The notes under the pieces were generated by a model that had not been told where the DNA came from, did no database searches, and saw only the letters and a program-made list of their open reading frames with translations. Positions 5,931 through 51,630 of a DNA stretch of 64,000 nucleotides are shown one piece after another. The stretch's first letter is position 1. The number at the start of each line of letters is the position of its first letter. The position numbers and the translations under genes were made by a program. Source of the DNA: an uncultured Pseudomonadales bacterium (lineage in GTDB: Bacteria > Patescibacteriota > Microgenomatia > UBA1400 > PJMF01); assembly GCA_964406075.1 (NCBI GenBank), contig CAYOQI010000002.1:160565-224564 (forward strand), given 5' to 3'.

Positions 5931-5967
5931 CCTGCCTACCGGCAGGCAGGCCGCCGACGGAGGCGGG
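5931..5967. repeat. GC palindrome copy 1 (CCTGCCTACCGGCAGGCAGG) followed by hairpin CCGCC-GACGGA-GGCGG
   Basis: The 20-bp core at 5931..5950 recurs at 13970, 49098 and 49296. A second GC hairpin lies at 5951..5966. No U-tract follows on the + strand. Confidence 0.85.
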
Positions 5968-13604: not shown

Positions 13605-14003
13605 TTATTTTTTACCTTCAAGGTTAAGAGTTACAGCTGCTTTAATGAGGTCTTTAAATGCTTTTTCATCAAACTTATCTTCTTCATGAATGACGATAGC
13701 TCGATAAGTATTGATCAGACTTTGCGGATCACTACTTTCTTTAAGAAGTTTTCCTTTTGATAATCCTAATCTCAGATGTTTATTGTATACCTCACCAGTA
13801 GAAATTATTCCGTGGTGATACCACACGAGCACTCCATTTGGATTTGTCTTTGTTTTATATTTTACCTCCTCAATCATTTCTGGATCTGCTTCCCTGATAA
13901 GTTCACGAATCCGCGACATAACCTTCCCACGCCAATCATCTGGAATTTTAAACTCTGAATTATTTGAAACCTGCCTGCCGGCAGGCAGGATATCTCTAGT
14001 CAT
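13605..14003 (-). CDS. DUF1801 domain protein
   Basis: DDWRGKVMSRIRELIREADPEMIEEVKYKTK...VLVWYHHGIISTGEVYNKHLRLGLSKG fits DUF1801. The N-terminus MTRDILPAGRQV is encoded across palindrome copy 2. Confidence 0.7.
   Translation of the reverse strand: MTRDILPAGRQVSNNSEFKIPDDWRGKVMSRIRELIREADPEMIEEVKYKTKTNPNGVLVWYHHGIISTGEVYNKHLRLGLSKGKLLKESSDPQSLINTYRAIVIHEEDKFDEKAFKDLIKAAVTLNLEGKK
13970..13989. repeat. GC palindrome copy 2 (CCTGCCTGCCGGCAGGCAGG)
   Basis: Perfect 20-bp palindrome inside codons 6-12 (LPAGRQV) of CDS 13605..14003. Confidence 0.9.
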
Positions 14004-23973: not shown

Positions 23974-25653
23974 ATGCGCTCCATTAGAAAAATATATTTC
24001 AGTTTTGCTGTTGGTTTGCTTTTTTTTGTCTTTTTTGTAGTATCTAGACAGCCAATTGATGCTGATGGTACTCTGGTGAGCTGGTGGAAATTAGATGAGA
24101 CGACACAAGGTGCTACTGCTGTCGACTCAGTTGGTACAAATAATGGAACTGGGGTAGGAACAGGTGGCGGTCCTAATCCGTCAACAGATGTACCTACGGT
24201 AAGTTTTTCTAATCCTAGATCAGCGAGTTTCAATGGTTCAGATCAATATTTTAATTGTGGAAATTCTCCATCAAATTTACCCACAGGTTCACAAGCGAGA
24301 ACAATTTCAGCATGGATAAAAGGAAACACATATACCGGCGGTTCTGGGAGAACAGTCGCAGGTTGGGGCACTGATTCCTCTGGACAGCTGAGCGAGTTGC
24401 GCGTCAACTCTTCAGGAAAAATTGAGTTTCATGGGAATAGTAATGACATCCCAGGGGCAACAACCCTTTCAACAGGACAATGGTATTTTGTTGCGACAAC
24501 AGTTTCGAGCAGTGGCGCAGTCAAGTTATATGTCAACGGGACAGAAGATGGTACCGGAAATGTGACACTCAATACGACAGCTGCAAACTGTAAAATTGGA
24601 CGTCAACCAGATTTTAATGGGCAGTACTTTAACGGCTTCATTGATGAGGTTCGTATTTATAATGGTGATTTATCACCTACTCAGATTACAAATCTAGCAA
24701 ATGGAAACTCGAGCCCTGATCCCACTCCGACGCCTACACCAACTCCCACACCTACCCCGACTCCAACACCCACCCTTACACCTACTCCAACTTCTGTCCC
24801 CTCAATCAGTAGCTCTGGTTCGTCATCTACATCAAATTCGAACTCCACTGAATGTAGCGATGAAGCACCTACATCAGTACCGGATCTTTTTCAGATTAGT
24901 ACTTCACTTACATCCGCAACGTTGTACTTTTCACCTGTAGGGTCGAGTACTGCTTATATCATCCATTACGGCACGTCACTTTCCGCGGATCAGTATGCAG
25001 TAAGTTTTGATCAAAGTACTTCAGGTGGTGTGGTGTCATATACGGTTCAGTCTCTTGCCTCAAACACCAGATATTATTTCAAGGTGCAAGCAAAGCGTGG
25101 TTGCAAAACTGGCACTTGGTCCAATACCAGAGATGAGAAAACGACGAGTCTCGTACCGGAAAATGGTGTTCCTACAACTTCATCAAAGCCATTAAAGATT
25201 CAGGTTGAAGAACCAGTGAAAACCGATACAACACAAGAACCTGCATCGCAAACAACAGAAACACCTATTTCAGACTCAGATGAAGTCGGTGGGTATGAAC
25301 TCTCTATTGCCGTAAAAAATGATGACAAACCAATAGAAGGTGCTGTTGTCGAGTTGCACTCAGTACCTCGTCAAACCACTACAGATAAAGATGGTATAGC
25401 CCGTTTTAGTAATGTCGAAAAAGGTGAGCATACCGTAAAAATTGCCTATGCTGACTATAACGGTGAAGAAAAAGTGACAATTGATGGAGACCAAAAAGAT
25501 CTTTCGATTAACATTACTATTGAAATGGAATCAACGTCAAAATCGCCCAATATATCAGGAATTACAATAGGGGCTGGTGGGGTACTTCTATTCTTGTTTC
25601 TCCTGTTTATTTTCAAAAGAAAAAAATCAAAGAAAGAAAAAATTCGAGTGTAA
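23974..25653 (+). CDS. Surface protein: LamG-like lectin domain, PT linker, FN3-like domain, CarboxypepD_reg-like domain, C-terminal TM anchor
   Basis: 559 aa. LVSWWKLDE...ASFNGSDQYF...ISAWIK...GQWYFVA...FIDEVRIYN fits LamG_3. The C-terminus is ...SPNISGITIGAGGVLLFLFLLFIFKRKKSKKEKIRV. Confidence 0.8.
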   Translation: MRSIRKIYFSFAVGLLFFVFFVVSRQPIDADGTLVSWWKLDETTQGATAVDSVGTNNGTGVGTGGGPNPSTDVPTVSFSNPRSASFNGSDQYFNCGNSPSNLPTGSQARTISAWIKGNTYTGGSGRTVAGWGTDSSGQLSELRVNSSGKIEFHGNSNDIPGATTLSTGQWYFVATTVSSSGAVKLYVNGTEDGTGNVTLNTTAANCKIGRQPDFNGQYFNGFIDEVRIYNGDLSPTQITNLANGNSSPDPTPTPTPTPTPTPTPTPTLTPTPTSVPSISSSGSSSTSNSNSTECSDEAPTSVPDLFQISTSLTSATLYFSPVGSSTAYIIHYGTSLSADQYAVSFDQSTSGGVVSYTVQSLASNTRYYFKVQAKRGCKTGTWSNTRDEKTTSLVPENGVPTTSSKPLKIQVEEPVKTDTTQEPASQTTETPISDSDEVGGYELSIAVKNDDKPIEGAVVELHSVPRQTTTDKDGIARFSNVEKGEHTVKIAYADYNGEEKVTIDGDQKDLSINITIEMESTSKSPNISGITIGAGGVLLFLFLLFIFKRKKSKKEKIRV

Positions 25654-29287: not shown

Positions 29288-30190
29288 ATGTTGGGTATAC
29301 CTGTCCGAACCCATCAAAAAAACTTCTGCTTACTTTTTTTTACTGTAAGTTTCTTCTTTATTTTTGCTTCTCAAACATTTGCTGTCGCAAATCATGTCGT
29401 GATTTCTGAAATCCAAGTGGGAGGTGAAGTTGCGACAGATGAGTTTGTTGAGCTTTATAATCCGACTAACTCACCAATAAACTTGAATGGTTGGCGTTTA
29501 TCAAAGAAAACATCAACGGGAACTCTCAGTAATCTTGCTACAACTATTTCAGGGACAATTCCGGCATATGGTTATTTTTTAATAGCGCATGAAGATTACA
29601 ATGCTGCCCCAACTCCGGATCAGGAATTTAATACTGGCACACTTGCTTCGGATAATACCGTCCTCCTTTATTCAGATGCAGGTGTAACCTTGGTCGATAA
29701 AGTTGGATTTGGAGATGCGACAGATAAAGAAACGGCCACATTACTCGATATCGCGAACAATAGTGGAGCAGAGCGAAAAGCTCAAACAACTTCCACCGCG
29801 ATATCAATGAATAGTGGCGGTGCAGATGAATTTTTCGGAAATGGCGAAGATACCGATAACAATTCCAATGATTTCATTGTTCGAACTTTTTCCCAGCCAC
29901 AAAACAGCTCATCATCGACAGAACAACTGCCAGTTTCTTCCCCTACCCCTACCTTCACACCTTCCCCTTCACCAACCCCTAGCCCAACTCCATCAAATAC
30001 TCCCTCACCTACACCGACAAGCACACCGCTTTCTACCGCCACTTCTACCCCTACAGTAACTCCCACACCTATTTCTTCACCACAACCAACTCCTACGGGA
30101 CTCAATCCCAAAATCCAGCACTTTAGAAATATATTTCAAGGAATACTACTGAAATTGAGAAATAAGACCGCACCAACTCCTACAACGTAA
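29288..30190 (+). CDS. Lamin-tail-domain (LTD) secreted protein with PT-rich C-terminus
   Basis: HVVISEIQVGGEVATDEFVELYNPTNSPINLNGWRL is the LTD signature. Confidence 0.8.
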   Translation: MLGIPVRTHQKNFCLLFFTVSFFFIFASQTFAVANHVVISEIQVGGEVATDEFVELYNPTNSPINLNGWRLSKKTSTGTLSNLATTISGTIPAYGYFLIAHEDYNAAPTPDQEFNTGTLASDNTVLLYSDAGVTLVDKVGFGDATDKETATLLDIANNSGAERKAQTTSTAISMNSGGADEFFGNGEDTDNNSNDFIVRTFSQPQNSSSSTEQLPVSSPTPTFTPSPSPTPSPTPSNTPSPTPTSTPLSTATSTPTVTPTPISSPQPTPTGLNPKIQHFRNIFQGILLKLRNKTAPTPTT

Positions 30191-32062: not shown

Positions 32063-32512
32063 TTATTTTTCTTTTTGCATACTCAGAATTTTTTCCCAAC
32101 TCGCAATTGGCCCTTCAATTAATTTGAATAGTGGATGAACAGCAAACGCTACTTCTTGCTGGAATTCGAGAAATTTCTGTGCATCTCGGGACTGTAATTT
32201 TTCTTTTAAATGCTGTATTTCATACTCTAATTGTCCACGAGTAACAGCAATTTTACTTACACCTTTCACTACTTGAAGTTTTTTTCGATCAAATTTGTAT
32301 CCTCTTTTTTCTGCCTCGTCGACAATACTGTGCAAGTACTCCGTGATTGCTTCGATCGGCGTGAAGTGTTCTTGAAATCTCTGCAATTGAGGATGTTTAG
32401 TGTAGCCCTTTGTTTTTCCCGAGAGGACATGAAGTGCCAGCAAACCTTCTCGCCACACTGCCACCAAACCTTTGGCATCTAAATACTTTGGATGGAGACT
32501 CCAAATGCGCAT
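32063..32512 (-). CDS. Pyrimidine dimer DNA glycosylase (endonuclease V/DenV-like family)
   Basis: MRIWSLHPKYLDAKGLVAVWREGLLA... is the family N-terminus. ATG 32512 was chosen. The upstream 207 nt of track ORF 32063..32719 is tRNA plus repeat. Confidence 0.8.
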   Translation of the reverse strand: MRIWSLHPKYLDAKGLVAVWREGLLALHVLSGKTKGYTKHPQLQRFQEHFTPIEAITEYLHSIVDEAEKRGYKFDRKKLQVVKGVSKIAVTRGQLEYEIQHLKEKLQSRDAQKFLEFQQEVAFAVHPLFKLIEGPIASWEKILSMQKEK

Positions 32513-32531
32513 ATTAATCCTGTTTGTTTTT

Positions 32532-32632
32532 GCGGACGTTGTCCCGCCGAAGCCGAGCTTCAGCGAGGCGAAGCTCTCCTTCGCAAGCTCTAGCGGACTG
32601 CGTCCGCCGTAGCTCGCTTCGGCGAGCGAAGG
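32532..32632 (-). repeat. GC-rich multi-hairpin module abutting the tRNA-Ser 3' end (long form)
   Basis: In tRNA orientation the hairpins are GCTCGC-CGAA-GCGAGC, GGCGGAC-GCA-GTCCGC, GCGAAG-GAGAG-CTTCGC and GAAGC-TCG-GCTTC, followed by GGCGGGAC-AAC-GTCCGC. 32562..32636 is identical to 35913..35987. Confidence 0.9.
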
Positions 32633-32717
32633 CGGAGGGAGAGAGATTCGAACTCTCGGTAGCTTGCGCCACGGCGGTTTAGTAAACCGCTGCACTAGAC
32701 CACTATGCGATCCCTCC
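32633..32717 (-). tRNA. tRNA-Ser-like class II tRNA with apparent anticodon ACT
   Basis: GGAGGGA-TC-GCA-TAGTGGTCTAG-TGC-A-GCGGT-TTACTAA-ACCGC-CGTGGCGCAAGCTACC-GAGAG-TTCGAAT-CTCTC-TCCCTCC-G. The architecture matches the two other tRNA-Ser genes. Loop TTACTAA puts ACT at positions 34-36. Confidence 0.75.
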
Positions 32718-32782
32718 AAATTTATGAATGCTTGTCGGGAAGTCCTACTGGCTTAAAAGCCAAGATGGGCTACCCCCCTCCA
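32718..32782 (-). repeat. 5'-flank element: decayed tRNA 5' start plus conserved hairpin
   Basis: Minus strand reads GGAGGGGGGTAGCCCATC-TTGGCTTTTAAGCCAG-TAGGACTTCC-...TAAATTT, then the tRNA. It shares the 15-mer gaagtcctactggct with 41777..41791. Confidence 0.7.
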
Positions 32783-32920
32783 AAACCTGATCATTATACT
32801 ATGTCATCTCTTTTTTCACCTCTCTAAAACACTACTCAACGTTCTTACCAAATACTGTTTTCACACGTGATATCCTTAGCTTTAAGGATTCATTATCAAA
32901 TACGTTTAACAAATATAACA

Positions 32921-34384
32921 ATGTCGAGATTTTTTTCTTCTGCCTTCGCTTTTCTCCTCATAAGTTCTTGTGTTCTGGTCTTTCCTTTCACCGCCTCAGC
33001 AGCCACAGACACTGAGTCTTTCGTCACCACTCAAGGCACAAAATTTATGCTCAACGGTCACGAGTTTAAATTTGTGGGTTTTAATCTCTTTGATGCCGCT
33101 GCTACTGATAGATATAAATGTGGCTGGTGGCCTCGTTTTACAGATCAGGAATTAGATACAGCCTTTAAATATATGCGTGATCAAGGTGGCGTCACGGTAA
33201 TACGATTTTGGGCATTTCAAAAATATACCGACAGCGGAAGAGATTGGAGTGGAGTCGACAAAGCAATTCGGATTGCAAAACAAAATGGCATGAAAGTAAT
33301 TCCTGTGATTGAAAATGGTCCGTCCCACTGTACTGGTGATCAAACAAAACAAAAATGGCAATATCAAAGTGATACTTGGTATACCGCTGGATATAAAGTG
33401 CCGTTCGGGACTGATTTAGTCAGTTATAGAGCATATGTTCAACAAATCGTGACTCGATACAAAGATGAGCCTGCAATTCTGGGGTGGATGATGATGAATG
33501 AAGCTGATACCAGTTTGAGGGTCAATGGAAAATCAGCTTTAGTAGAATTTTCTCGTGACATTGGAACACTCATAAATAGCATTGATTCAAAACATCTCAT
33601 TACAGTCGGAACCCAAAGTAATGGAGCTTCAGGGGCAAGTGGGCAAGATTTTGTCGATGTCTATGGACTTTCTATGATTGACTTCACTGAAGGACATGAT
33701 TGGGAATACTGGTCTGGAAATGAAGCTGATCCTTTACCTGGATCGAGCAACGGAACTGCCTTGCCTGATGTCAATTCACCAGATTGTACAAAAACCTACC
33801 AAGCGAAAATTGCTTGTTCAATTGCAAATTCTGTCAACGTTTTAAACAAACCATTTGTGATGGGTGAAGCCGGAGTCAGAGCAGACGACAATGCAACTTC
33901 TCGCCAACGTCGTGCAGATATTTTTGATACTAAAATGCGTGCATCTTTTGATAATCGAGTTGCGGGATATCTAGTTTGGCAGTGGAATACTATTATTGAT
34001 TCGGAAAAGTTTGATGTGCTCCAAAGACACAATGATCCGTTGTTGGCCAAAATGAAAGCCCGCGCGGGTTATCTTCCACAATTACCGGGACAATCAACCC
34101 CGATTCCTACAACGTCCTCCTCTCCCACTCCGACACCTTCTCGCTCTCCATCTCCTACTCCAACCCAACGTCCAACGACACCAACTCCATCTCCCATCAT
34201 CTCTGCCTGTGGCAGAGAAGATATCAATCTTGATAAGATTATCGATATTACCGATTACAGTATTCTCGTCTCCAATTTTTTAGTCACCCCAGTGTATGCA
34301 CCCGCAGATATCGACAATGATGGAATCGTGGATATCACCGATTATAGTTTAGTCGTCAGTAAATTTTTGCAAAGGTGTCCTTAA
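32921..34384 (+). CDS. Secreted GH5-like glycoside hydrolase with PT linker and C-terminal dockerin-like module
   Basis: ATG 32921 followed by a signal peptide. VIRFWAF and GWMMMNEA are GH5-like (NE acid/base). The C-terminus DINLDKIIDITDYSILVSNF...DIDNDGIVDITDYSLVVSKF shows duplicated EF-hand dockerin repeats. Confidence 0.75.
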   Translation: MSRFFSSAFAFLLISSCVLVFPFTASAATDTESFVTTQGTKFMLNGHEFKFVGFNLFDAAATDRYKCGWWPRFTDQELDTAFKYMRDQGGVTVIRFWAFQKYTDSGRDWSGVDKAIRIAKQNGMKVIPVIENGPSHCTGDQTKQKWQYQSDTWYTAGYKVPFGTDLVSYRAYVQQIVTRYKDEPAILGWMMMNEADTSLRVNGKSALVEFSRDIGTLINSIDSKHLITVGTQSNGASGASGQDFVDVYGLSMIDFTEGHDWEYWSGNEADPLPGSSNGTALPDVNSPDCTKTYQAKIACSIANSVNVLNKPFVMGEAGVRADDNATSRQRRADIFDTKMRASFDNRVAGYLVWQWNTIIDSEKFDVLQRHNDPLLAKMKARAGYLPQLPGQSTPIPTTSSSPTPTPSRSPSPTPTQRPTTPTPSPIISACGREDINLDKIIDITDYSILVSNFLVTPVYAPADIDNDGIVDITDYSLVVSKFLQRCP

Positions 34385-34444
34385 TCATTCTCCATTTCTC
34401 TTTCGATCTTTTCACTTTCCTAAATCTGATTTACTATCAAGCAT

Positions 34445-35110
34445 ATGAGTGACGTAAAAATACATGAGTCATGGAAAAAAGCCTTAACGCCTGAGTTTGA
34501 AAAACCGTATTGGAATGACTTAACTGCTTTTGTACGTCAGGAATATCAAAACAAAAAAGTCTATCCTCCTGCCAAAAATATTTTCCGAGCCTTTGAACTC
34601 TGCCCATTTGAAACAGTCAAAGTGGTGATTGTGGGGCAAGATCCATACCACGGGGCTGGACAAGCCAATGGTCTTTCCTTTGCCGTGAACGACGGAGTGG
34701 CGATACCGCCATCATTACAAAATATATACAAAGAAATTAAAAGTGACTTGGATATTACCCCAATTAATTCTGGTGATTTATCACGCTGGGCCACACAAGG
34801 TGTGCTGATGCTCAATAGTGTTTTAACTGTGGCCGCCAATACTCCTACCTCTCATAAAGGTAAAGGTTGGGAAGAATTTACGGATGCGGTGATTCAATCG
34901 CTAAATGATCACCGAAAAAATATTGTCTATATGTTGTGGGGAAAATATGCTCAAACCAAAGGCTTGGTTATTGACCGAGAAAATAATCTGGTTTTAACTT
35001 CCGGTCACCCTTCACCCTTTTCGGCACATCTATTCTTCGGACATCATCACTTCAGTCAAGCGAATATCTATTTGGCTCTCAACGGCGAAGAGCCAATTGA
35101 TTGGAAGTAA
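34445..35110 (+). CDS. ung: Uracil-DNA glycosylase (family 1)
   Basis: VVIVGQDPYHGAGQANGLSFAV and HPSPFSA motifs. Confidence 0.92.
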   Translation: MSDVKIHESWKKALTPEFEKPYWNDLTAFVRQEYQNKKVYPPAKNIFRAFELCPFETVKVVIVGQDPYHGAGQANGLSFAVNDGVAIPPSLQNIYKEIKSDLDITPINSGDLSRWATQGVLMLNSVLTVAANTPTSHKGKGWEEFTDAVIQSLNDHRKNIVYMLWGKYAQTKGLVIDRENNLVLTSGHPSPFSAHLFFGHHHFSQANIYLALNGEEPIDWK

Positions 35111-35127
35111 AATCACTTCTTCAAATC

Positions 35128-35586
35128 TTATCTTCCAACTCTATCTCGCAAGTAAAATTTATTTAAAACAGGGAGATTACCAAAAAAATCCTTCGAAATA
35201 TCTTGGAATCCTCTTGTCATTAGCAACCACTCGGAATACGAATCGGGACTCACAATTGCGCAGACCGGGAGTTGCAAAGTTTGTTCAACAAATCCTATTG
35301 CATGATCCATCAGCTTTTCACCATACTGATGACCACGAGCTTCAGGATCAACATAGTAACTAATTTCTCCTAAAGTCGTAGGTAATTCTACCTTACGCTT
35401 AGTTGGATTTAGTATTGCAACCTCAGACATACCGATAATCTTACCAAGAATAGATCCAATGAAAATGTATTTTGGTGGATCTGTATGAAAAAGACAAATT
35501 AATTCACTTTCCATAATAGCTAAGAATAATCTGTCTCTCTCAGTCTGAGCGAATTCTGGTGTCACTTGTTGAATTTCAAGTTGCAT
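35128..35586 (-). CDS. GNAT-family N-acetyltransferase
   Basis: YYVDPEARGHQYGEKLMDHAI resembles GNAT motif A. Confidence 0.6.
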   Translation of the reverse strand: MQLEIQQVTPEFAQTERDRLFLAIMESELICLFHTDPPKYIFIGSILGKIIGMSEVAILNPTKRKVELPTTLGEISYYVDPEARGHQYGEKLMDHAIGFVEQTLQLPVCAIVSPDSYSEWLLMTRGFQDISKDFFGNLPVLNKFYLRDRVGR

Positions 35587-35627
35587 AAATGTCTAAGAAA
35601 ATGCTGAAGGCGATGGGATTTACCCTT

Positions 35628-35882
35628 TTATTTAATTTCTTCATTTACTAATTGATGCTTTTTCATGAAAGCTCTGCCCGAACCAGATTTTAAGTATTTC
35701 TCAAAATTGAAGGCCGTATATTTATTTGAAAATGCAAAATAAGAAATGAGTGATATTGGCAATCTGTCTTTTGTTGCAAGTACGTGACCGTTCTGATGTC
35801 TTGCGAGTCTAGCCTTCAGATTATCAGTACAACCTGTATAAGGTAAATAATCAGAACACTTAAGAATATAGACGTACCACAT
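35628..35882 (-). CDS. GIY-YIG nuclease family protein
   Basis: MWYVYILKCSDYLPYTGCTDNLKARLARHQNG. Confidence 0.85.
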   Translation of the reverse strand: MWYVYILKCSDYLPYTGCTDNLKARLARHQNGHVLATKDRLPISLISYFAFSNKYTAFNFEKYLKSGSGRAFMKKHQLVNEEIK

Positions 35883-35912
35883 CGATGGTATTAATTTTAC
35901 AGTAAATTATCT

Positions 35913-35983
35913 AGCGAGGCGAAGCTCTCCTTCGCAAGCTCTAGCGGACTGCGTCCGCCGTAGCTCGCTTCGGCGAGCGAAGG
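35913..35983 (-). repeat. GC-rich multi-hairpin module abutting the tRNA-Ser(GCT) 3' end
   Basis: 75/75 identity (35913..35987) with 32562..32636, although the two tRNA bodies differ. Confidence 0.9.
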
Positions 35984-36068
35984 CGGAAGCGATGGGATTC
36001 GAACCCATGAGCCTCTTTCGAGGCGCGGATTAGCAATCCGCTGCACTAGGCCACTATGCGACGCTTCC
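35984..36068 (-). tRNA. tRNA-Ser (anticodon GCT)
   Basis: GGAAGCG-TC-GCA-TAGTGGCCTAG-TGC-A-GCGGA-TTGCTAA-TCCGC-long variable arm-ATGGG-TTCGAAT-CCCAT-CGCTTCC-G. CCA is not encoded. Confidence 0.9.
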
Positions 36069-36112: not shown

Positions 36113-36553
36113 TTATTTCTGTGGAAGTTGAGGAAGTACTGAAGTGAAAAATTCTTTATCTTTTCGATGAGTCAAAAGATCAGCTACTTCATTTCGATCA
36201 ACCCAGCGGGCTTCAGGGTTTTCGGGATCTTGAGGAGCTAACGTCATTTGTGTGGTTGTGAATAAAAACATGTGAATCGTTTTTAATTCAGACAAATCAT
36301 CACCACCATCCAAACTAATCCGATATCGATCGTACGATCCTAGAGGTCGGAGTAATTGTAGCTCTGAGATTCCTGACTCTTCTACTACTTCTCGTCGAGC
36401 TGCGGTCATTTCATCTTCACCTTCATCAATATGTCCTTTGGGTAATGACCAGCTATTTCCTTTTTGATTCACGACTAGAACCAAACCATCTGAATTCAGG
36501 ACGACTCCTCCAGCTGCTTGAGTTTTTCTTGTAACAATGTGTGCGTCGGTCAT
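36113..36553 (-). CDS. NUDIX hydrolase
   Basis: Canonical Nudix box GHIDEGEDEMTAARREVVEESG. Confidence 0.9.
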   Translation of the reverse strand: MTDAHIVTRKTQAAGGVVLNSDGLVLVVNQKGNSWSLPKGHIDEGEDEMTAARREVVEESGISELQLLRPLGSYDRYRISLDGGDDLSELKTIHMFLFTTTQMTLAPQDPENPEARWVDRNEVADLLTHRKDKEFFTSVLPQLPQK

Positions 36554-41429: not shown

Positions 41430-41565
41430 TTTTGAAAAATATGTAGATTTTTAGCATTAATAAAGTACAGAGAGTGAGGGATTTAGCCTCGTCATGCTCA
41501 AATTATTCTTTTTTGAGTGTATTCGCTTGATCGGGCACTATTGAAATCCCGCTTTCACTCATCTT

Positions 41566-41608
41566 GGCGGACTTTGTCCGCCGAAGCCGAGCTTCAGCGA
41601 GGCGAAGG
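41566..41608 (-). repeat. GC-rich hairpin module abutting the tRNA-Ser(TGA) 3' end (short form)
   Basis: 41578..41607 is identical to 32544..32573 (30 nt). It equals the long form minus 58 bp between gcgaag repeats and includes hairpin GGCGGAC-AAA-GTCCGCC. Confidence 0.85.
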
Positions 41609-41691
41609 CGGAGAGGGAGGGATTCGAACCCTCGATCCTTTCGGATGTCGGTTTTCAAGACCGATGCACTAGACCACTATGCGACCTCTCC
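41609..41691 (-). tRNA. tRNA-Ser (anticodon TGA)
   Basis: GGAGAGG-TC-GCA-TAGTGGTCTAG-TGC-A-TCGGT-CTTGAAA-ACCGA-CATCCGAAAGGATC-GAGGG-TTCGAAT-CCCTC-CCTCTCC-G. Confidence 0.9.
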
Positions 41692-41816
41692 TAAATTAAC
41701 AAACATTAACGAGGTAGTACTGCTGACTGTAAGTCAACATGTGCGACCTCTCCATAATTTACTTAAAACTACTGAGGAAGTCCTACTGGCTGAAAGCCAA
41801 TACGGGGGACCTCTCA
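41692..41816 (-). repeat. Two tandem ~62-nt units, each starting with a copy of the tRNA-Ser 5' end followed by a hairpin
   Basis: Unit 1 (41753..41692) is GGAGAGGTCGCA (12/12 with tRNA nt 1-12), then GTTGACT-TAC-AGTCAGC. Unit 2 (41816..41754) is TGAGAGGTCCCCCGTA-TTGGCT-TTC-AGCCAG-TAGGACTTCC. Confidence 0.75.
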
Positions 41817-49061: not shown

Positions 49062-49094
49062 TGGACCCGACAGGATTCGAACCTGTGACCTCAC
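49062..49094 (-). pseudogene. Orphan tRNA 3' fragment (variable loop, T arm, acceptor 3' strand)
   Basis: Minus strand reads GAGGTC-ACAGG-TTCGAAT-CCTGT-CGGGTCC-A. No matching GGACCCG 5' strand or D arm lies upstream; palindrome copy 3 sits there instead. Confidence 0.65.
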
Positions 49095-49097
49095 GAA

Positions 49098-49117
49098 CCT
49101 GCCTACCGGCAGGCAGG
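49098..49117. repeat. GC palindrome copy 3 (CCTGCCTACCGGCAGGCAGG)
   Basis: Extended by flanking TCAC/GTGA pairing. It lies between tRNA-Val and the tRNA fragment. Confidence 0.9.
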
Positions 49118-49150
49118 TGTGAATCATAGAATTTTTCAAACCGAAAACCG

Positions 49151-49224
49151 TGCTCACACCAGGACTCGAACCTGGGACCTCTGCAATGTGAATGCAGCGC
49201 TCTAACCAACTGAGCTATGTGAGC
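49151..49224 (-). tRNA. tRNA-Val (anticodon CAC)
   Basis: GCTCACA-TA-GCTC-AGTTGGTTA-GAGC-G-CTGCA-TTCACAT-TGCAG-AGGTC-CCAGG-TTCGAGT-CCTGG-TGTGAGC-A. Confidence 0.9.
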
Positions 49225-49275: not shown

Positions 49276-49315
49276 CCGCCTTGGGCGGAAACTGACCTGC
49301 CTGCCGGCAGGCAGG
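49276..49315. repeat. Hairpin CCGCC-TTG-GGCGG plus GC palindrome copy 4 (CCTGCCTGCCGGCAGGCAGG)
   Basis: Palindrome at 49296..49315. It lies within the ~110-nt GC-rich leader between the promoter and tRNA-Val. Confidence 0.9.
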
Positions 49316-51219: not shown

Positions 51220-51624
51220 GGGGATGTACCGCTTCGACGTGTACGTACTTTTACATCTGCAGACCATCTCTGACACTTGAGATGTTAATACCAGTGTTAA
51301 ACCAAAACTGAAACAATTTCAGCCAAAGTGCAAAAAATTGGTCGAGAAATCGCCAGTCTTTTCACTCCAGTAGCTACTCCAGCTTACGCTTTAGTAGCCT
51401 AATGGCATTCGCTTGATTCTCTCACGGACGGAATCTTGCGGGTGACAACTCAGTGCGTGTGACTGTTTCTTCGTACAGTTCCGAAGAGACGTAAGCCTTT
51501 GAACTGCAGACAAGATGACCGGTTGGTCCGATAACCACTTCTTGTCACACTGAAAATCGGAACATGTCTGTAGAAGATGTCATCGTAGAGTATGCGGACA
51601 GGGGCTCACTGCCCCTCATCTCCA
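51220..51624 (+). ncRNA. ssrA: tmRNA (SsrA)
   Basis: The 5' end is GGGGATGTACCGCTTCGACG. The 3' acceptor CATCTCC-A pairs with GGGGATG, including G3:U70. The tag reading frame ends ...CCAGCTTACGCTTTAGTAGCCTAA (PAYALVA*), with the stop at 51400..51402. Confidence 0.9.
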
Positions 51625-51630
51625 CAAAAG

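Follow-up and report, generated by a model that had tools for sequence, protein, structure and literature searches.

In the 64-kb stretch of DNA analysed here (the window; approximately 40% GC, with five tRNA genes and one tmRNA gene), an identical GC-rich sequence of 75 nt stands at the 3' ends of two different tRNA-Ser genes, at positions 32562-32636 and 35913-35987, and the question raised by this locus is what the repeated sequence is and how two genes came to share it. The identity is complete (75/75 positions; 0 such matches expected from 100 shuffles), as an earlier note on this DNA had reported, and the shared stretch begins within the tRNA, at its final five bases CCGCC. We conclude, with a probability of roughly 55%, that tRNA-Ser 3' ends are occupied by a compact selfish DNA cassette, of which the repeat forms the junction module. 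The full cassette consists of a tRNA-Ser gene ending in NCCGCC, one or more GC-rich units of 57-60 nt and a gene encoding a GIY-YIG nuclease of 78-84 amino acid (aa) residues (Slx1-like/UPF0213). The observations on which this conclusion draws are the linkage between tRNA-Ser, module and GIY-YIG gene, a wide and patchy distribution, copying within genomes, a match between the second hairpin of the module and the tRNA end, remnants of tRNA ends, and decayed open reading frames (ORFs). Overlooked in the earlier note were the link to the GIY-YIG gene, which is the key to the element, the great breadth of the element's distribution, and the copy of the tRNA end in one of its hairpins.

Two unit variants behind three tRNA-Ser genes

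Each unit of the module follows a tRNA ending in NCCGCC (in tRNA-Ser the discriminator G plus CC) and is composed of TTCG, which comes immediately after the tRNA, hairpin 1, CTAC, hairpin 2 (GGCGGAC-NNN-GTCCGC) and a distal segment that reads GCGAAGGAGAG or GAGCGAAAGCGGG. Two types can be distinguished: v1 (57 nt), comprising TTCG, GCTCGC-CGAA-GCGAGC, TAC, GGCGGAC-NNN-GTCCGC, 5-14 nt and GCGAAGGAGAG, and v2 (59 nt), comprising TTCGC, CTCGCT, GAAGC-TCG-GCTTC, GGCGGAC-NNN-GTCCGCC, 4-14 nt and GAGYGAAAGCGGG. The distal segment is an inverted repeat of the tRNA-module junction, CCGCCTTCGC(C)TCG pairing with CGAGCGAA(A/G)GCGG.

The three tRNA-Ser genes of the window all lie on the minus strand, were identified by both ARAGORN and Rfam, and differ in their bodies; the same module family is found directly 3' of each (3/3), on the same strand. 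Behind tRNA-Ser(ACU) (32631..32717; Rfam tRNA, 53.9 bits), whose end TCCGCC forms the left flank of the module, a complete v1 unit at 32574..32630 (TTCG, GCTCGC-CGAA-GCGAGC, TAC, GGCGGAC-GCA-GTCCGC, TAGAGCTT, GCGAAGGAGAG) is matched at 32572-32639 with 85.3 bits by R1, a covariance model built from 67 units. It is followed by a partial v2 unit at 32532..32572 (TTCGCCTCGCT, GAAGC-TCG-GCTTC, GGCGGGAC-AAC-GTCCGC, without the distal GAGCGAAAGCGGG; partial R1 match 32527-32567, E = 9e-4), after which comes a pyrimidine-dimer glycosylase gene on the same strand (32512..32063; Pfam Pyr_excise). Behind tRNA-Ser(GCU) (35982..36068), the segment 35913..35981 holds a v1 unit (35925-35981; R1 match 35923-35990, 83.4 bits) identical to that at 32574-32630, and a v2 stub of 12 nt at 35913-35924 (CTTCGCCTCGCT). 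Behind tRNA-Ser(UGA) (41607..41691) lies a complete v2 unit without an ORF at 41548..41606 (TTCGCCTCGCT, GAAGC-TCG-GCTTC, GGCGGAC-AAA-GTCCGCC, AAGATGA, GTGAAAGCGGG; R1 match 41546-41615, 67.2 bits), for which the predicted fold is a three-way junction with CCGCCUUCGC : GUGAAAGCGG as its closing helix. When R1 was run on the window with its filters off, four units were found, the partial one included, all of them at the three tRNA-Ser sites. Of the three sites, the one at tRNA-Ser(GCU) has a full cassette; those at tRNA-Ser(ACU) and tRNA-Ser(UGA) are ORF-less derivatives.

Much of what the earlier note had described is borne out by this dissection, namely the differing tRNA bodies (anticodons ACU, GCU and UGA), the identity of the 30-mers at 41578-41607 and 32544-32573, and the four hairpins that it had named, all of which are present in the sequence. 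The difference of 58 bp that it saw between a long and a short form is exact in size; the extra segment comprises the whole v1 unit (32574-32630) together with the C at 32573, and stands between the tRNA and a v2 unit. The short form runs beyond the limit that had been supposed, as far as 41548, and takes in GAGTGAAAGCGGG, which repeats in inverted form the CCGCCTTCGCCTCG of the tRNA junction. The halves of the long form are not the product of a simple local tandem duplication, these halves being two unit variants that are found separately in other genomes.

The identity of the two copies might be attributed to an assembly artefact, a repeat having been collapsed or duplicated, given that the contig is metagenome-assembled and that short-read contigs do break at the repeat. 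The same v1-v2-glycosylase junction is, however, present in an independent Logan assembly contig (L001; L-numbers denote loci retrieved from other genomes or assemblies), the end of which falls inside the repeat; each copy in the window has unique flanks on both sides; and the same tRNA-module junction recurs in more than 70 other, unrelated assemblies, including a complete Mucilaginibacter genome. An artefact, which the earlier note had named as a possible undoing of its observation, is therefore extremely improbable. Ordinary terminators lacking a U-tract, or generic GC-rich stabilising hairpins of independent origin behind each tRNA-Ser, would account for GC-rich hairpins directly after the 3' end of a gene in a genome of 40% GC. 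The hairpins are not canonical terminators, as had been noted: no T-run follows any of them and a terminator scan of the window was empty at the modules, whereas tRNA-Asn in the same window is followed by a canonical hairpin and a T-rich tail. Independent origin cannot explain near-identical sequences of 40-60 nt across phyla, and the downstream ORF would rely on read-through, which makes this explanation very improbable; it and the artefact are effectively excluded.

Beyond the two variants of the window, an alternative hairpin, GTCGCC-ATAGCTTTAGC-GACGGCGAC (GTCGCC..GCTTTAGC..GGCGAC), substitutes for or joins hairpin 1 at several loci (L136 1375-1400, L133 1470-1495, L124 2455-2485, L026, L080 and L122). 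With hairpin types interchangeable in this manner, the module family reads as a mosaic of several hairpin cassettes around a constant CTAC-GGCGGAC-NNN-GTCCGC. Tandem and partial units were found in L111, L082 and L025.

Linkage to a GIY-YIG gene and distribution across genomes

Directly 3' of the module at tRNA-Ser(GCU), and on the same strand, an intact ORF of 84 aa at 35628..35882 (MWYVYILKC..PYTGCT..FEKYLKSGSGRAF) encodes a minimal GIY-YIG nuclease (Pfam PF01541, E = 1.5e-10). The protein is a bare GIY-YIG catalytic domain, the ORFs of other cassettes measuring 78-84 aa, and its best match in the PDB is 1zg2 (UPF0213 protein BH0048; E = 7.7e-8). The motifs VYI / YTG / R / FEKY are present in all homologues, as expected of proteins in the GIY-YIG superfamily, for which Tyr..Tyr..Arg..Glu is the conserved series. 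A word-indexed protein search returned 1525 close homologues, the best of them 81% identical and most of them from Microgenomates metagenome-assembled genomes (MAGs), and 3788 cluster representatives were found at E <= 1e-3. Eukaryotic Slx1 is a structure-specific nuclease, an activity that would suit a hairpin or junction substrate. Proteins of the UPF0213 type have been classed by Dunin-Horkawicz et al. as a minimal bacterial Slx1-like GIY-YIG family (PMC1564403). In canonical v1 cassettes the ATG of the ORF comes 2-10 nt after the distal GGAGAG, which, owing to this position, appears to be the ORF's Shine-Dalgarno site.

The association of this gene with the module was assessed from the protein side, independently of any module pattern, by inspecting the genomic context of eight GIY-YIG homologues and of a second copy in L121. 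All nine distinct genes (L121 (two), L122, L124, L125, L132, L133, L135 and L136) have a tRNA-Ser upstream on the same strand (a remnant in L124) and an intervening module, and all nine modules contain CTAC-GGCGGAC-NNN-GTCCGC. From the module side, a GIY-YIG ORF lies directly downstream at 26 of the 72 module positions outside the window. The conserved order of a NUDIX hydrolase gene, tRNA-Ser, module and GIY-YIG gene was observed in the window (36113-36553, 35982-36068 and 35628-35882 for the three genes) and in two other Microgenomates MAGs (L121 1919-2740; L135 835-1743), indicating that some occupied sites are old enough for synteny.

A DNA scan with the pattern CTCGCYGAAGCN{2,3}GCTWCGGCGG, in which each species was represented by a single genome, matched at least 119 loci; among the matches listed, about 70 low-GC loci are true modules, the high-GC matches being chance occurrences inside ORFs. 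Carriers include MAGs labelled Saccharibacteria, Levy-, Nealson-, Kaiser-, Yanofsky-, Azam-, Ames- and Harrisonbacteria and other Patescibacteria, several Bacteroidota (Mucilaginibacter, with one complete genome, Weeksellaceae, Cyclobacteriaceae and Bacteroidia) and some low-GC MAGs labelled Gammaproteobacteria. When 82 low-GC loci, among them the protein-first and metagenome loci, were scanned with R1, 91 matches were obtained, of which 57 lie directly 3' of a tRNA-Ser of any anticodon on the same strand. A further 13 are located at other tRNAs, either at the 5' ends of tRNA-Gly, tRNA-Pro and tRNA-Leu on the opposite strand or at the 3' ends of tRNA-Glu, tRNA-Trp and tRNA-Leu, and each of the others is truncated by a contig end, stands behind a pseudo-tRNA remnant or forms part of a tandem array. 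Modules are tied to tRNA ends, mainly those of tRNA-Ser, and the random scatter of a generic repetitive extragenic palindromic (REP) element, which the earlier note had named as refuting its observation, is not what is seen. Expressed as occupancy, 57 of the 96 tRNA-Ser genes against 4 of the 71 other tRNA genes in these loci carry a module, figures that are biased by the choice of loci for holding at least one.

The orientation of the module is fixed with respect to the CCGCC strand, even where it abuts the 5' end of a tRNA-Gly, tRNA-Pro or tRNA-Leu on the opposite strand, and in tRNA-Tyr/tRNA-Gly spacers this places it antisense to the local tRNA operon; a rule acting at the level of DNA is therefore argued. 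A subfamily with the hairpin GGCGGGC..GCCCGC and the distal segment CTCGCGAAGGCGAG was encountered in Parcubacteria-type MAGs (L008, L011, L033, L052 and L103), situated in a tRNA-Tyr(-like)/tRNA-Gly spacer antisense to the tRNAs, with no GIY-YIG ORF nearby except for one upstream on the opposite strand in L052.

Copying, the tRNA-end match and alternative explanations

Several observations bear on the mobility of the cassette. L121 carries cassettes behind both tRNA-Ser(CGA) and tRNA-Ser(GGA), and between these the module is 94% and the ORF 88% identical, as opposed to 59% for the tRNA bodies, the similarity running from the 3' strand of the tRNA to the end of the ORF. The tRNA-Ser(ACU) gene is occupied in the window and in L092 and empty in L122 and L029; the empty gene of L122 ends ...CTCTCCGCC|GCTTG, which shows that GCC belongs to the tRNA gene itself and that TTCG is where the module starts. 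In the window, a degenerate copy of the tRNA-Ser(GCU) 3' end (35603..35621, minus strand; AAATCCCATCGCCTTCAGC vs GAATCCCATCGCTTCCGCC) lies 6 nt after the GIY-YIG stop codon and would mark the right edge of the insertion, and a remnant of the tRNA-Ser(UGA) 3' end (41468..41484, minus strand; AAATCCCTCACTCTCTG, 15/17 identical to GAATCCCTCCCTCTCCG) lies 122 nt past the tRNA-module junction. Remnants from the T-loop onward were also found in L040 and L034, where they end ...TCCGCCA; about 0.2 matches of such quality are expected by chance over all tests together. Decay is seen in GIY-YIG ORFs that are frameshifted or truncated (L040, L041, L042 and L071), in modules without an ORF, in tandem arrays (L111 and L082) and in hairpin mosaics. 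If the cassette model is adopted, we lean towards recent copying between the ACU and GCU genes as the source of the 75/75 identity in the window. Of the two possibilities that the earlier note had offered, a mobile or gene-converted element targeting tRNA-Ser 3' ends is the one favoured by these comparative data, the element being tied to tRNA genes, patchy in occurrence and copied between tRNA-Ser genes.

Some features of the tRNA genes concerned were recorded alongside. Several Patescibacteria conserve a tRNA-Ser that has an ACU anticodon (A34), its common core being TCGCATAGTGGYCTAGTGCAGCGGTTTACTAAACCGCCGT (window 32631-32717, minus strand; L092 ~1385-1471; L029 after 7772; L122 4019-4105 and 2760-2840); tRNA-Arg(ACG) apart, bacterial tRNAs with A34 are uncommon. 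Genes for this tRNA-Ser adjoin GIY-YIG cassettes repeatedly, and in L122 a truncated second copy comes directly after the cassette. The first 12 nt of tRNA-Ser(UGA) (GGAGAGGTCGCA, 41680-41691) recur at 41741-41752, 49 nt upstream of the gene, and an upstream motif TTGGCTTT(T/C)A(A)GCCAGTAGGACTTCC is common to tRNA-Ser(ACU) (32740-32765) and tRNA-Ser(UGA) (41777-41800); these upstream repeats may represent a promoter-region element or a further scar of duplication.

The stem of hairpin 2 matches the last six bases of the adjoining tRNA. Where the tRNA ends in TCCGCC the hairpin arms are GGCGGA and TCCGCC, with CCCGCC they are GGCGGG and CCCGCC, and with GCCGCC (tRNA-Glu, L009) they are GGCGGC and GCCGCC. 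In alignment A2 all four pairs occur at the variable position (pair 39-46: AU 52, GC 11, CG 2, UA 1), pair 40-45 is CG in 57, UA in 4 and UG in 3 cases, and 96% of the alignment cells in this helix are paired, so that compensatory change is evident. The variable base follows the tRNA base six positions before the junction (flank position -6 vs hairpin-2 5' arm: UA 51, CG 10, AU 1, GC 1, other 4). A metagenome scan for modules with a hairpin starting GGCGGY served as a prediction from this rule, and in L128/L131 it held true: a tRNA-Ser(GGA) with the unusual end ...CCCCACCGCC (ACCGCC) is followed by the hairpin GGCGGTC-GAA-GACCGCC. The three-way match between the tRNA end and the two arms could reflect function, in the form of target recognition or mimicry. 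As an explanation of the repeated sequence we also considered target-site duplication, with NCCGCC doubled and the element ending inside hairpin 2; it accounts for the direct repeat only and was not adopted, because the complementary arm and the conserved distal segment beyond it are left unexplained.

The selfish cassette that we favour would function as follows. Transcription would reach it by read-through from the tRNA promoter, as suggested by the Shine-Dalgarno site inside the module and by the failure of the scans to find a terminator or a convincing promoter between tRNA and ORF (the promoter scan, with fewer sites than in shuffled sequence, was uninformative). The distal GAAGGAGAG would act as the Shine-Dalgarno site and the hairpins would separate the tRNA from the mRNA. 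The predicted nuclease would break unoccupied tRNA-Ser 3' regions, and repair from an occupied gene would copy the cassette together with a 3' segment of the tRNA, a homing-like gene conversion for which the intragenomic copies, the remnants and the series of decayed forms are the grounds; subsequent loss of the ORF would leave solo modules.

A number of findings weigh against this account. The module pattern has zero matches in viral contigs, leaving the cassette with no known vector, and remnants of tRNA ends are present at only ~4-5 of ~76 insertions. The ORF lacks the DNA-binding domains of known GIY-YIG homing endonucleases, and inheritance in the minimal Slx1-like family has been described as largely vertical (PMC1564403). 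A gap of 46 nt separates the Shine-Dalgarno-like segment from the ATG in the one full cassette of the window. The flank rule failed in L127/L130, where a pseudo-tRNA flank GACCGCC is accompanied by the hairpin GGCGGC..GCCGCC, and the covariation of flank and hairpin could arise without any function, through templated correction of nearby inverted or direct repeats. Finally, the module core is ~91% identical at the nucleotide level as against ~69% for the ORF, a comparison that constitutes weak evidence, being biased by the choice of loci with the module pattern; the stronger conservation of the core suggests a sequence-specific role of the module itself and not that of a passenger.

This conservation leads to a different explanation, in which the module is a functional structured RNA, at once a 3' trailer to tRNA-Ser and a 5' leader to the GIY-YIG mRNA, and its spread is secondary. 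Such an RNA might act in processing (as a new self-cleaving motif or a structure recognised by an RNase), in stabilising the mRNA 5' end, or in gating translation, the Shine-Dalgarno region pairing with the tRNA-module junction. The earlier note had likewise raised a 3'-trailer RNA, and the very strong conservation of the core and the distal ribosome-binding site of the nuclease gene agree with that part of its argument. The module abuts the tRNA with no terminator or promoter in between, compensatory changes are seen in hairpin 2, the predicted fold is a three-way junction with a closing helix enclosing two hairpins, and there is a precedent in the theta ribozymes, which resemble that of hepatitis delta virus (HDV) and are fused to phage tRNA 3' ends (PMC10879173). 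Hairpin 1, however, is invariant and without covariation; it and the junction helix are so nearly invariant that they carry little information on pairing, with a single compensatory case for the latter in L077, where the flank CCTGCC is accompanied by a distal GCAGG. The folds reach modest z-scores (-1.7 to -3.0), the topology of the closing helix is not HDV-like, and neither at the gathering threshold nor with E <= 10 does any Rfam family, ribozymes included, match the module in cmscan, weak matches to sX4 and plastid families overlapping the tRNA itself. In addition, 39 of the 96 tRNA-Ser genes in the same loci have no module, and the module is reversed relative to transcription in tRNA-Tyr/tRNA-Gly spacers; its opposite orientation at tRNA-Gly 5' ends fits an association at the DNA level better than a trailer. 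We therefore consider a primarily RNA-based role unlikely. Two specific folds were also set aside: hammerhead and HDV-like structures do not fit when their core motifs are compared by eye, the HDV-like helix order being wrong as well, and pairing of the conserved distal GGAGAG with the tRNA acceptor 3' strand shows no covariation, tRNAs with CCCTCC and GCTTCC alike retaining GGAGAG.

The arrangement of the palindromes would also be compatible with an autonomous element mobilised in trans, either REP-like, resembling a miniature inverted-repeat transposable element (MITE), or a derivative of IS200/IS605 insertion sequences of the palindrome-associated transposable element (PATE) kind, for which a transposase would be encoded elsewhere and the GIY-YIG gene would be no more than a frequent neighbour or a favoured landing site. 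In keeping with this, the ends are inverted repeats (CCGCCTTCGC(C)TCG ... CGAGCGAA(A/G)GCGG), every insertion lies 3' of one short specific sequence that is not duplicated, part of the interior is complementary to this target, the opposite strand has a GTAG beside a hairpin, units occur alone, in tandem and as mosaics, and the same genome has further GC palindromes. Set against these are the restriction of copies to tRNA ends (4 units in 64 kb, all at tRNA-Ser), the absence of a Y1 gene of the REP-associated tyrosine transposase (RAYT) type adjacent to any examined module (the genomes were not searched for one), and the 9/9 protein-side linkage and co-duplication in L121, which are hard to square with a bystander gene. 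An element of this kind is, in our view, distinctly unlikely. A second GC-rich palindrome family, CCTGCCTRCCGGCAGGCAGG, has four copies in the 64 kb (5931-5950, 13970-13989, 49098-49117 and 49296-49315) and looks like a separate REP-like element; two copies bracket tRNA-Val (49150-49224), and small CCGCC/GGCGG hairpins stand beside two copies (5951-5966 and 49276-49288). Downstream of tRNA-Val, an orphan tRNA 3' half (T-arm and acceptor 3' strand, TTCGTGAGGTCACAGGTTCGAATCCTGTCGGGTCCA; 49062-49097, minus strand) abuts a CCTGCC palindrome and may be the scar of recombination at a tRNA gene.

A more far-reaching possibility, which we regard as a long shot, is that of a guided element, in which the hairpin-2 5' arm GGCGGN would base-pair with the tRNA end NCCGCC and thereby choose the insertion or cleavage site for a structure-specific GIY-YIG nuclease of 80 aa, a logic analogous to that of IS200/IS605 guides or IS110 bridge RNAs. 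The ends differ by tRNA type (TCCGCC or ACCGCC in tRNA-Ser, CCCGCC in tRNA-Gly, tRNA-Trp and tRNA-Pro, GCCGCC in tRNA-Glu), and if this were true, two base changes in the hairpin would retarget the element, which would constitute a new and very small programmable targeting system with an unrelated enzyme. The three-way match calls for a mechanism or for neutral templating; should it reflect target choice, it would be relevant to programmable DNA targeting.

If the selfish cassette is real, it explains a common unannotated part of Patescibacteria and Bacteroidota genomes, including small genes annotated as "GIY-YIG nuclease family protein", as well as GC-rich blocks at which short-read assemblies break at tRNA-Ser genes. 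The minimal Slx1-like GIY-YIG proteins would gain a candidate substrate in tRNA-Ser gene ends with their folded module, and a cellular example would be at hand of a tiny selfish cassette living on tRNA read-through transcription. With the R1 model and the rule of linkage, such elements can be annotated and tRNA-Ser loci flagged as recombination hotspots.

As regards the remainder of the window, an origin from a phage or organelle was considered and dismissed: no phage match was found, the tmRNA and housekeeping genes are present, and homologues of its Dus protein place it in Patescibacteria (Microgenomates/Pacebacteria-like), this protein being 100% identical to one from an NCBI MAG and 69% identical to the next relative. 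The tmRNA gene is of the one-piece type (51220-51627, plus strand; Rfam RF00023, 64.4 bits). Degenerate C/A-rich repeats of 6-nt and 12-nt periodicity lie within ORFs at 24704-24809, 29931-30096 and 34095-34176; read from the plus strand they would code for linkers rich in Pro and Thr, of which one lies in a GH5 cellulase-like protein, and proteins near these ORFs carry dockerin and cohesin domains.

Comparison with known systems

Fungal mitochondrial GC clusters and double-hairpin elements are mobile GC-rich hairpins in AT-richer genomes, often located near tRNA genes and sometimes linked to mobile endonuclease ORFs that replace the 3' end of a gene and leave the old end as a remnant. Being organellar and unrelated in sequence, they offer an analogy only. 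IS608 guide sequences consist of an internal segment complementary to the target, as is seen in the module. With REP elements, bacterial interspersed mosaic elements (BIMEs) and their RAYT transposases, and with IS200/IS605-PATE systems, the module shares GC-rich imperfect palindromes in mosaic and tandem arrangements, insertion 3' of a short specific sequence without target duplication and GTAG beside a hairpin. In contrast to REP/BIME elements, its copies are confined to tRNA ends and not dispersed, both in the unfiltered R1 search of the 64 kb and in the other loci. The protein, moreover, is of the GIY-YIG type, unlike those of REP/RAYT and IS200/IS605, and no Y1 (HUH) gene adjoins the examined modules, a statement confined to these neighbourhoods as the genomes were not searched. 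IS200/IS605-PATE elements insert 3' of a fixed tetra- or pentanucleotide and have subterminal hairpins, with neither target duplication nor terminal inverted repeats; the module always lies 3' of NCCGCC and has hairpins, but its ends do form inverted repeats, and the 'guide' complementary to the target is one arm of a hairpin.

The theta ribozymes (PMC10879173) likewise place a compact GC-rich structure within a few nucleotides of the tRNA 3' end, behind many tRNAs. The module differs from these phage elements in that it has neither the nested double pseudoknot of HDV-like ribozymes nor a G1 at the junction, matches nothing in Rfam, and is found in bacterial genomes, mainly at tRNA-Ser; upstream tRNA bases, which HDV-like ribozymes do not need, pair or covary with it. 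Concerning the protein, UPF0213 members (YhbQ-type; PDB 1zg2 and 1ywl; PMC1564403) are of the same PF01541 family and of equal size and also lack auxiliary domains, although the published accounts consulted on UPF0213/Slx1-like proteins report neither linkage to tRNA-Ser nor a palindromic module and describe a mostly vertically inherited family. The combination of tRNA-Ser, module and GIY-YIG gene was not met with in the full-text literature searched, the coverage of which is incomplete so that an earlier description is possible, and the module has no Rfam match; the cassette is thus apparently undescribed, in agreement with the remark in the earlier note that the repeat was not a recognised element.

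In its functioning the cassette is most like a free-standing GIY-YIG homing endonuclease gene and also like a miniature tRNA-targeting island, while falling outside the definition of both because it has no DNA-binding domain and no integrase. As in integrase-borne islands, insertion occurs at the 3' end of a tRNA that remains intact, sometimes with a displaced tRNA 3' segment at the far end; this distal repeat is present in degenerate form at two sites in the window and in L040 and L034, most loci having none. Unlike islands, the element measures only 130-450 bp, without an integrase or long perfect att repeats, and the insertions in the window (~130 and ~380 bp) encode at most the GIY-YIG ORF and no tyrosine or serine integrase. 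In T4, SegB provides the parallel of a GIY-YIG gene between or beside tRNA genes within a tRNA gene cluster (PMC2330249), and free-standing GIY-YIG homing genes are inherited with flanking sequence and pass through a cycle of invasion, decay and loss; among the cassettes, too, there are pseudogenes and sites without an ORF. Seg and Mob proteins, and those of the I-TevI type, have ~200 aa or more and join the catalytic domain to a sequence-specific DNA-binding domain, and the hosts of Seg and Mob are phages, whereas the cassette has a cellular host, a protein of 78-84 aa restricted to the catalytic domain and a conserved multi-hairpin module at its junction. Its patchy occupancy, intragenomic copies and tRNA-end remnants are no more than indirect signs of cleavage of, and copying into, alleles that lack the gene, and it is to free-standing GIY-YIG homing genes that the cassette would appear to stand closest.

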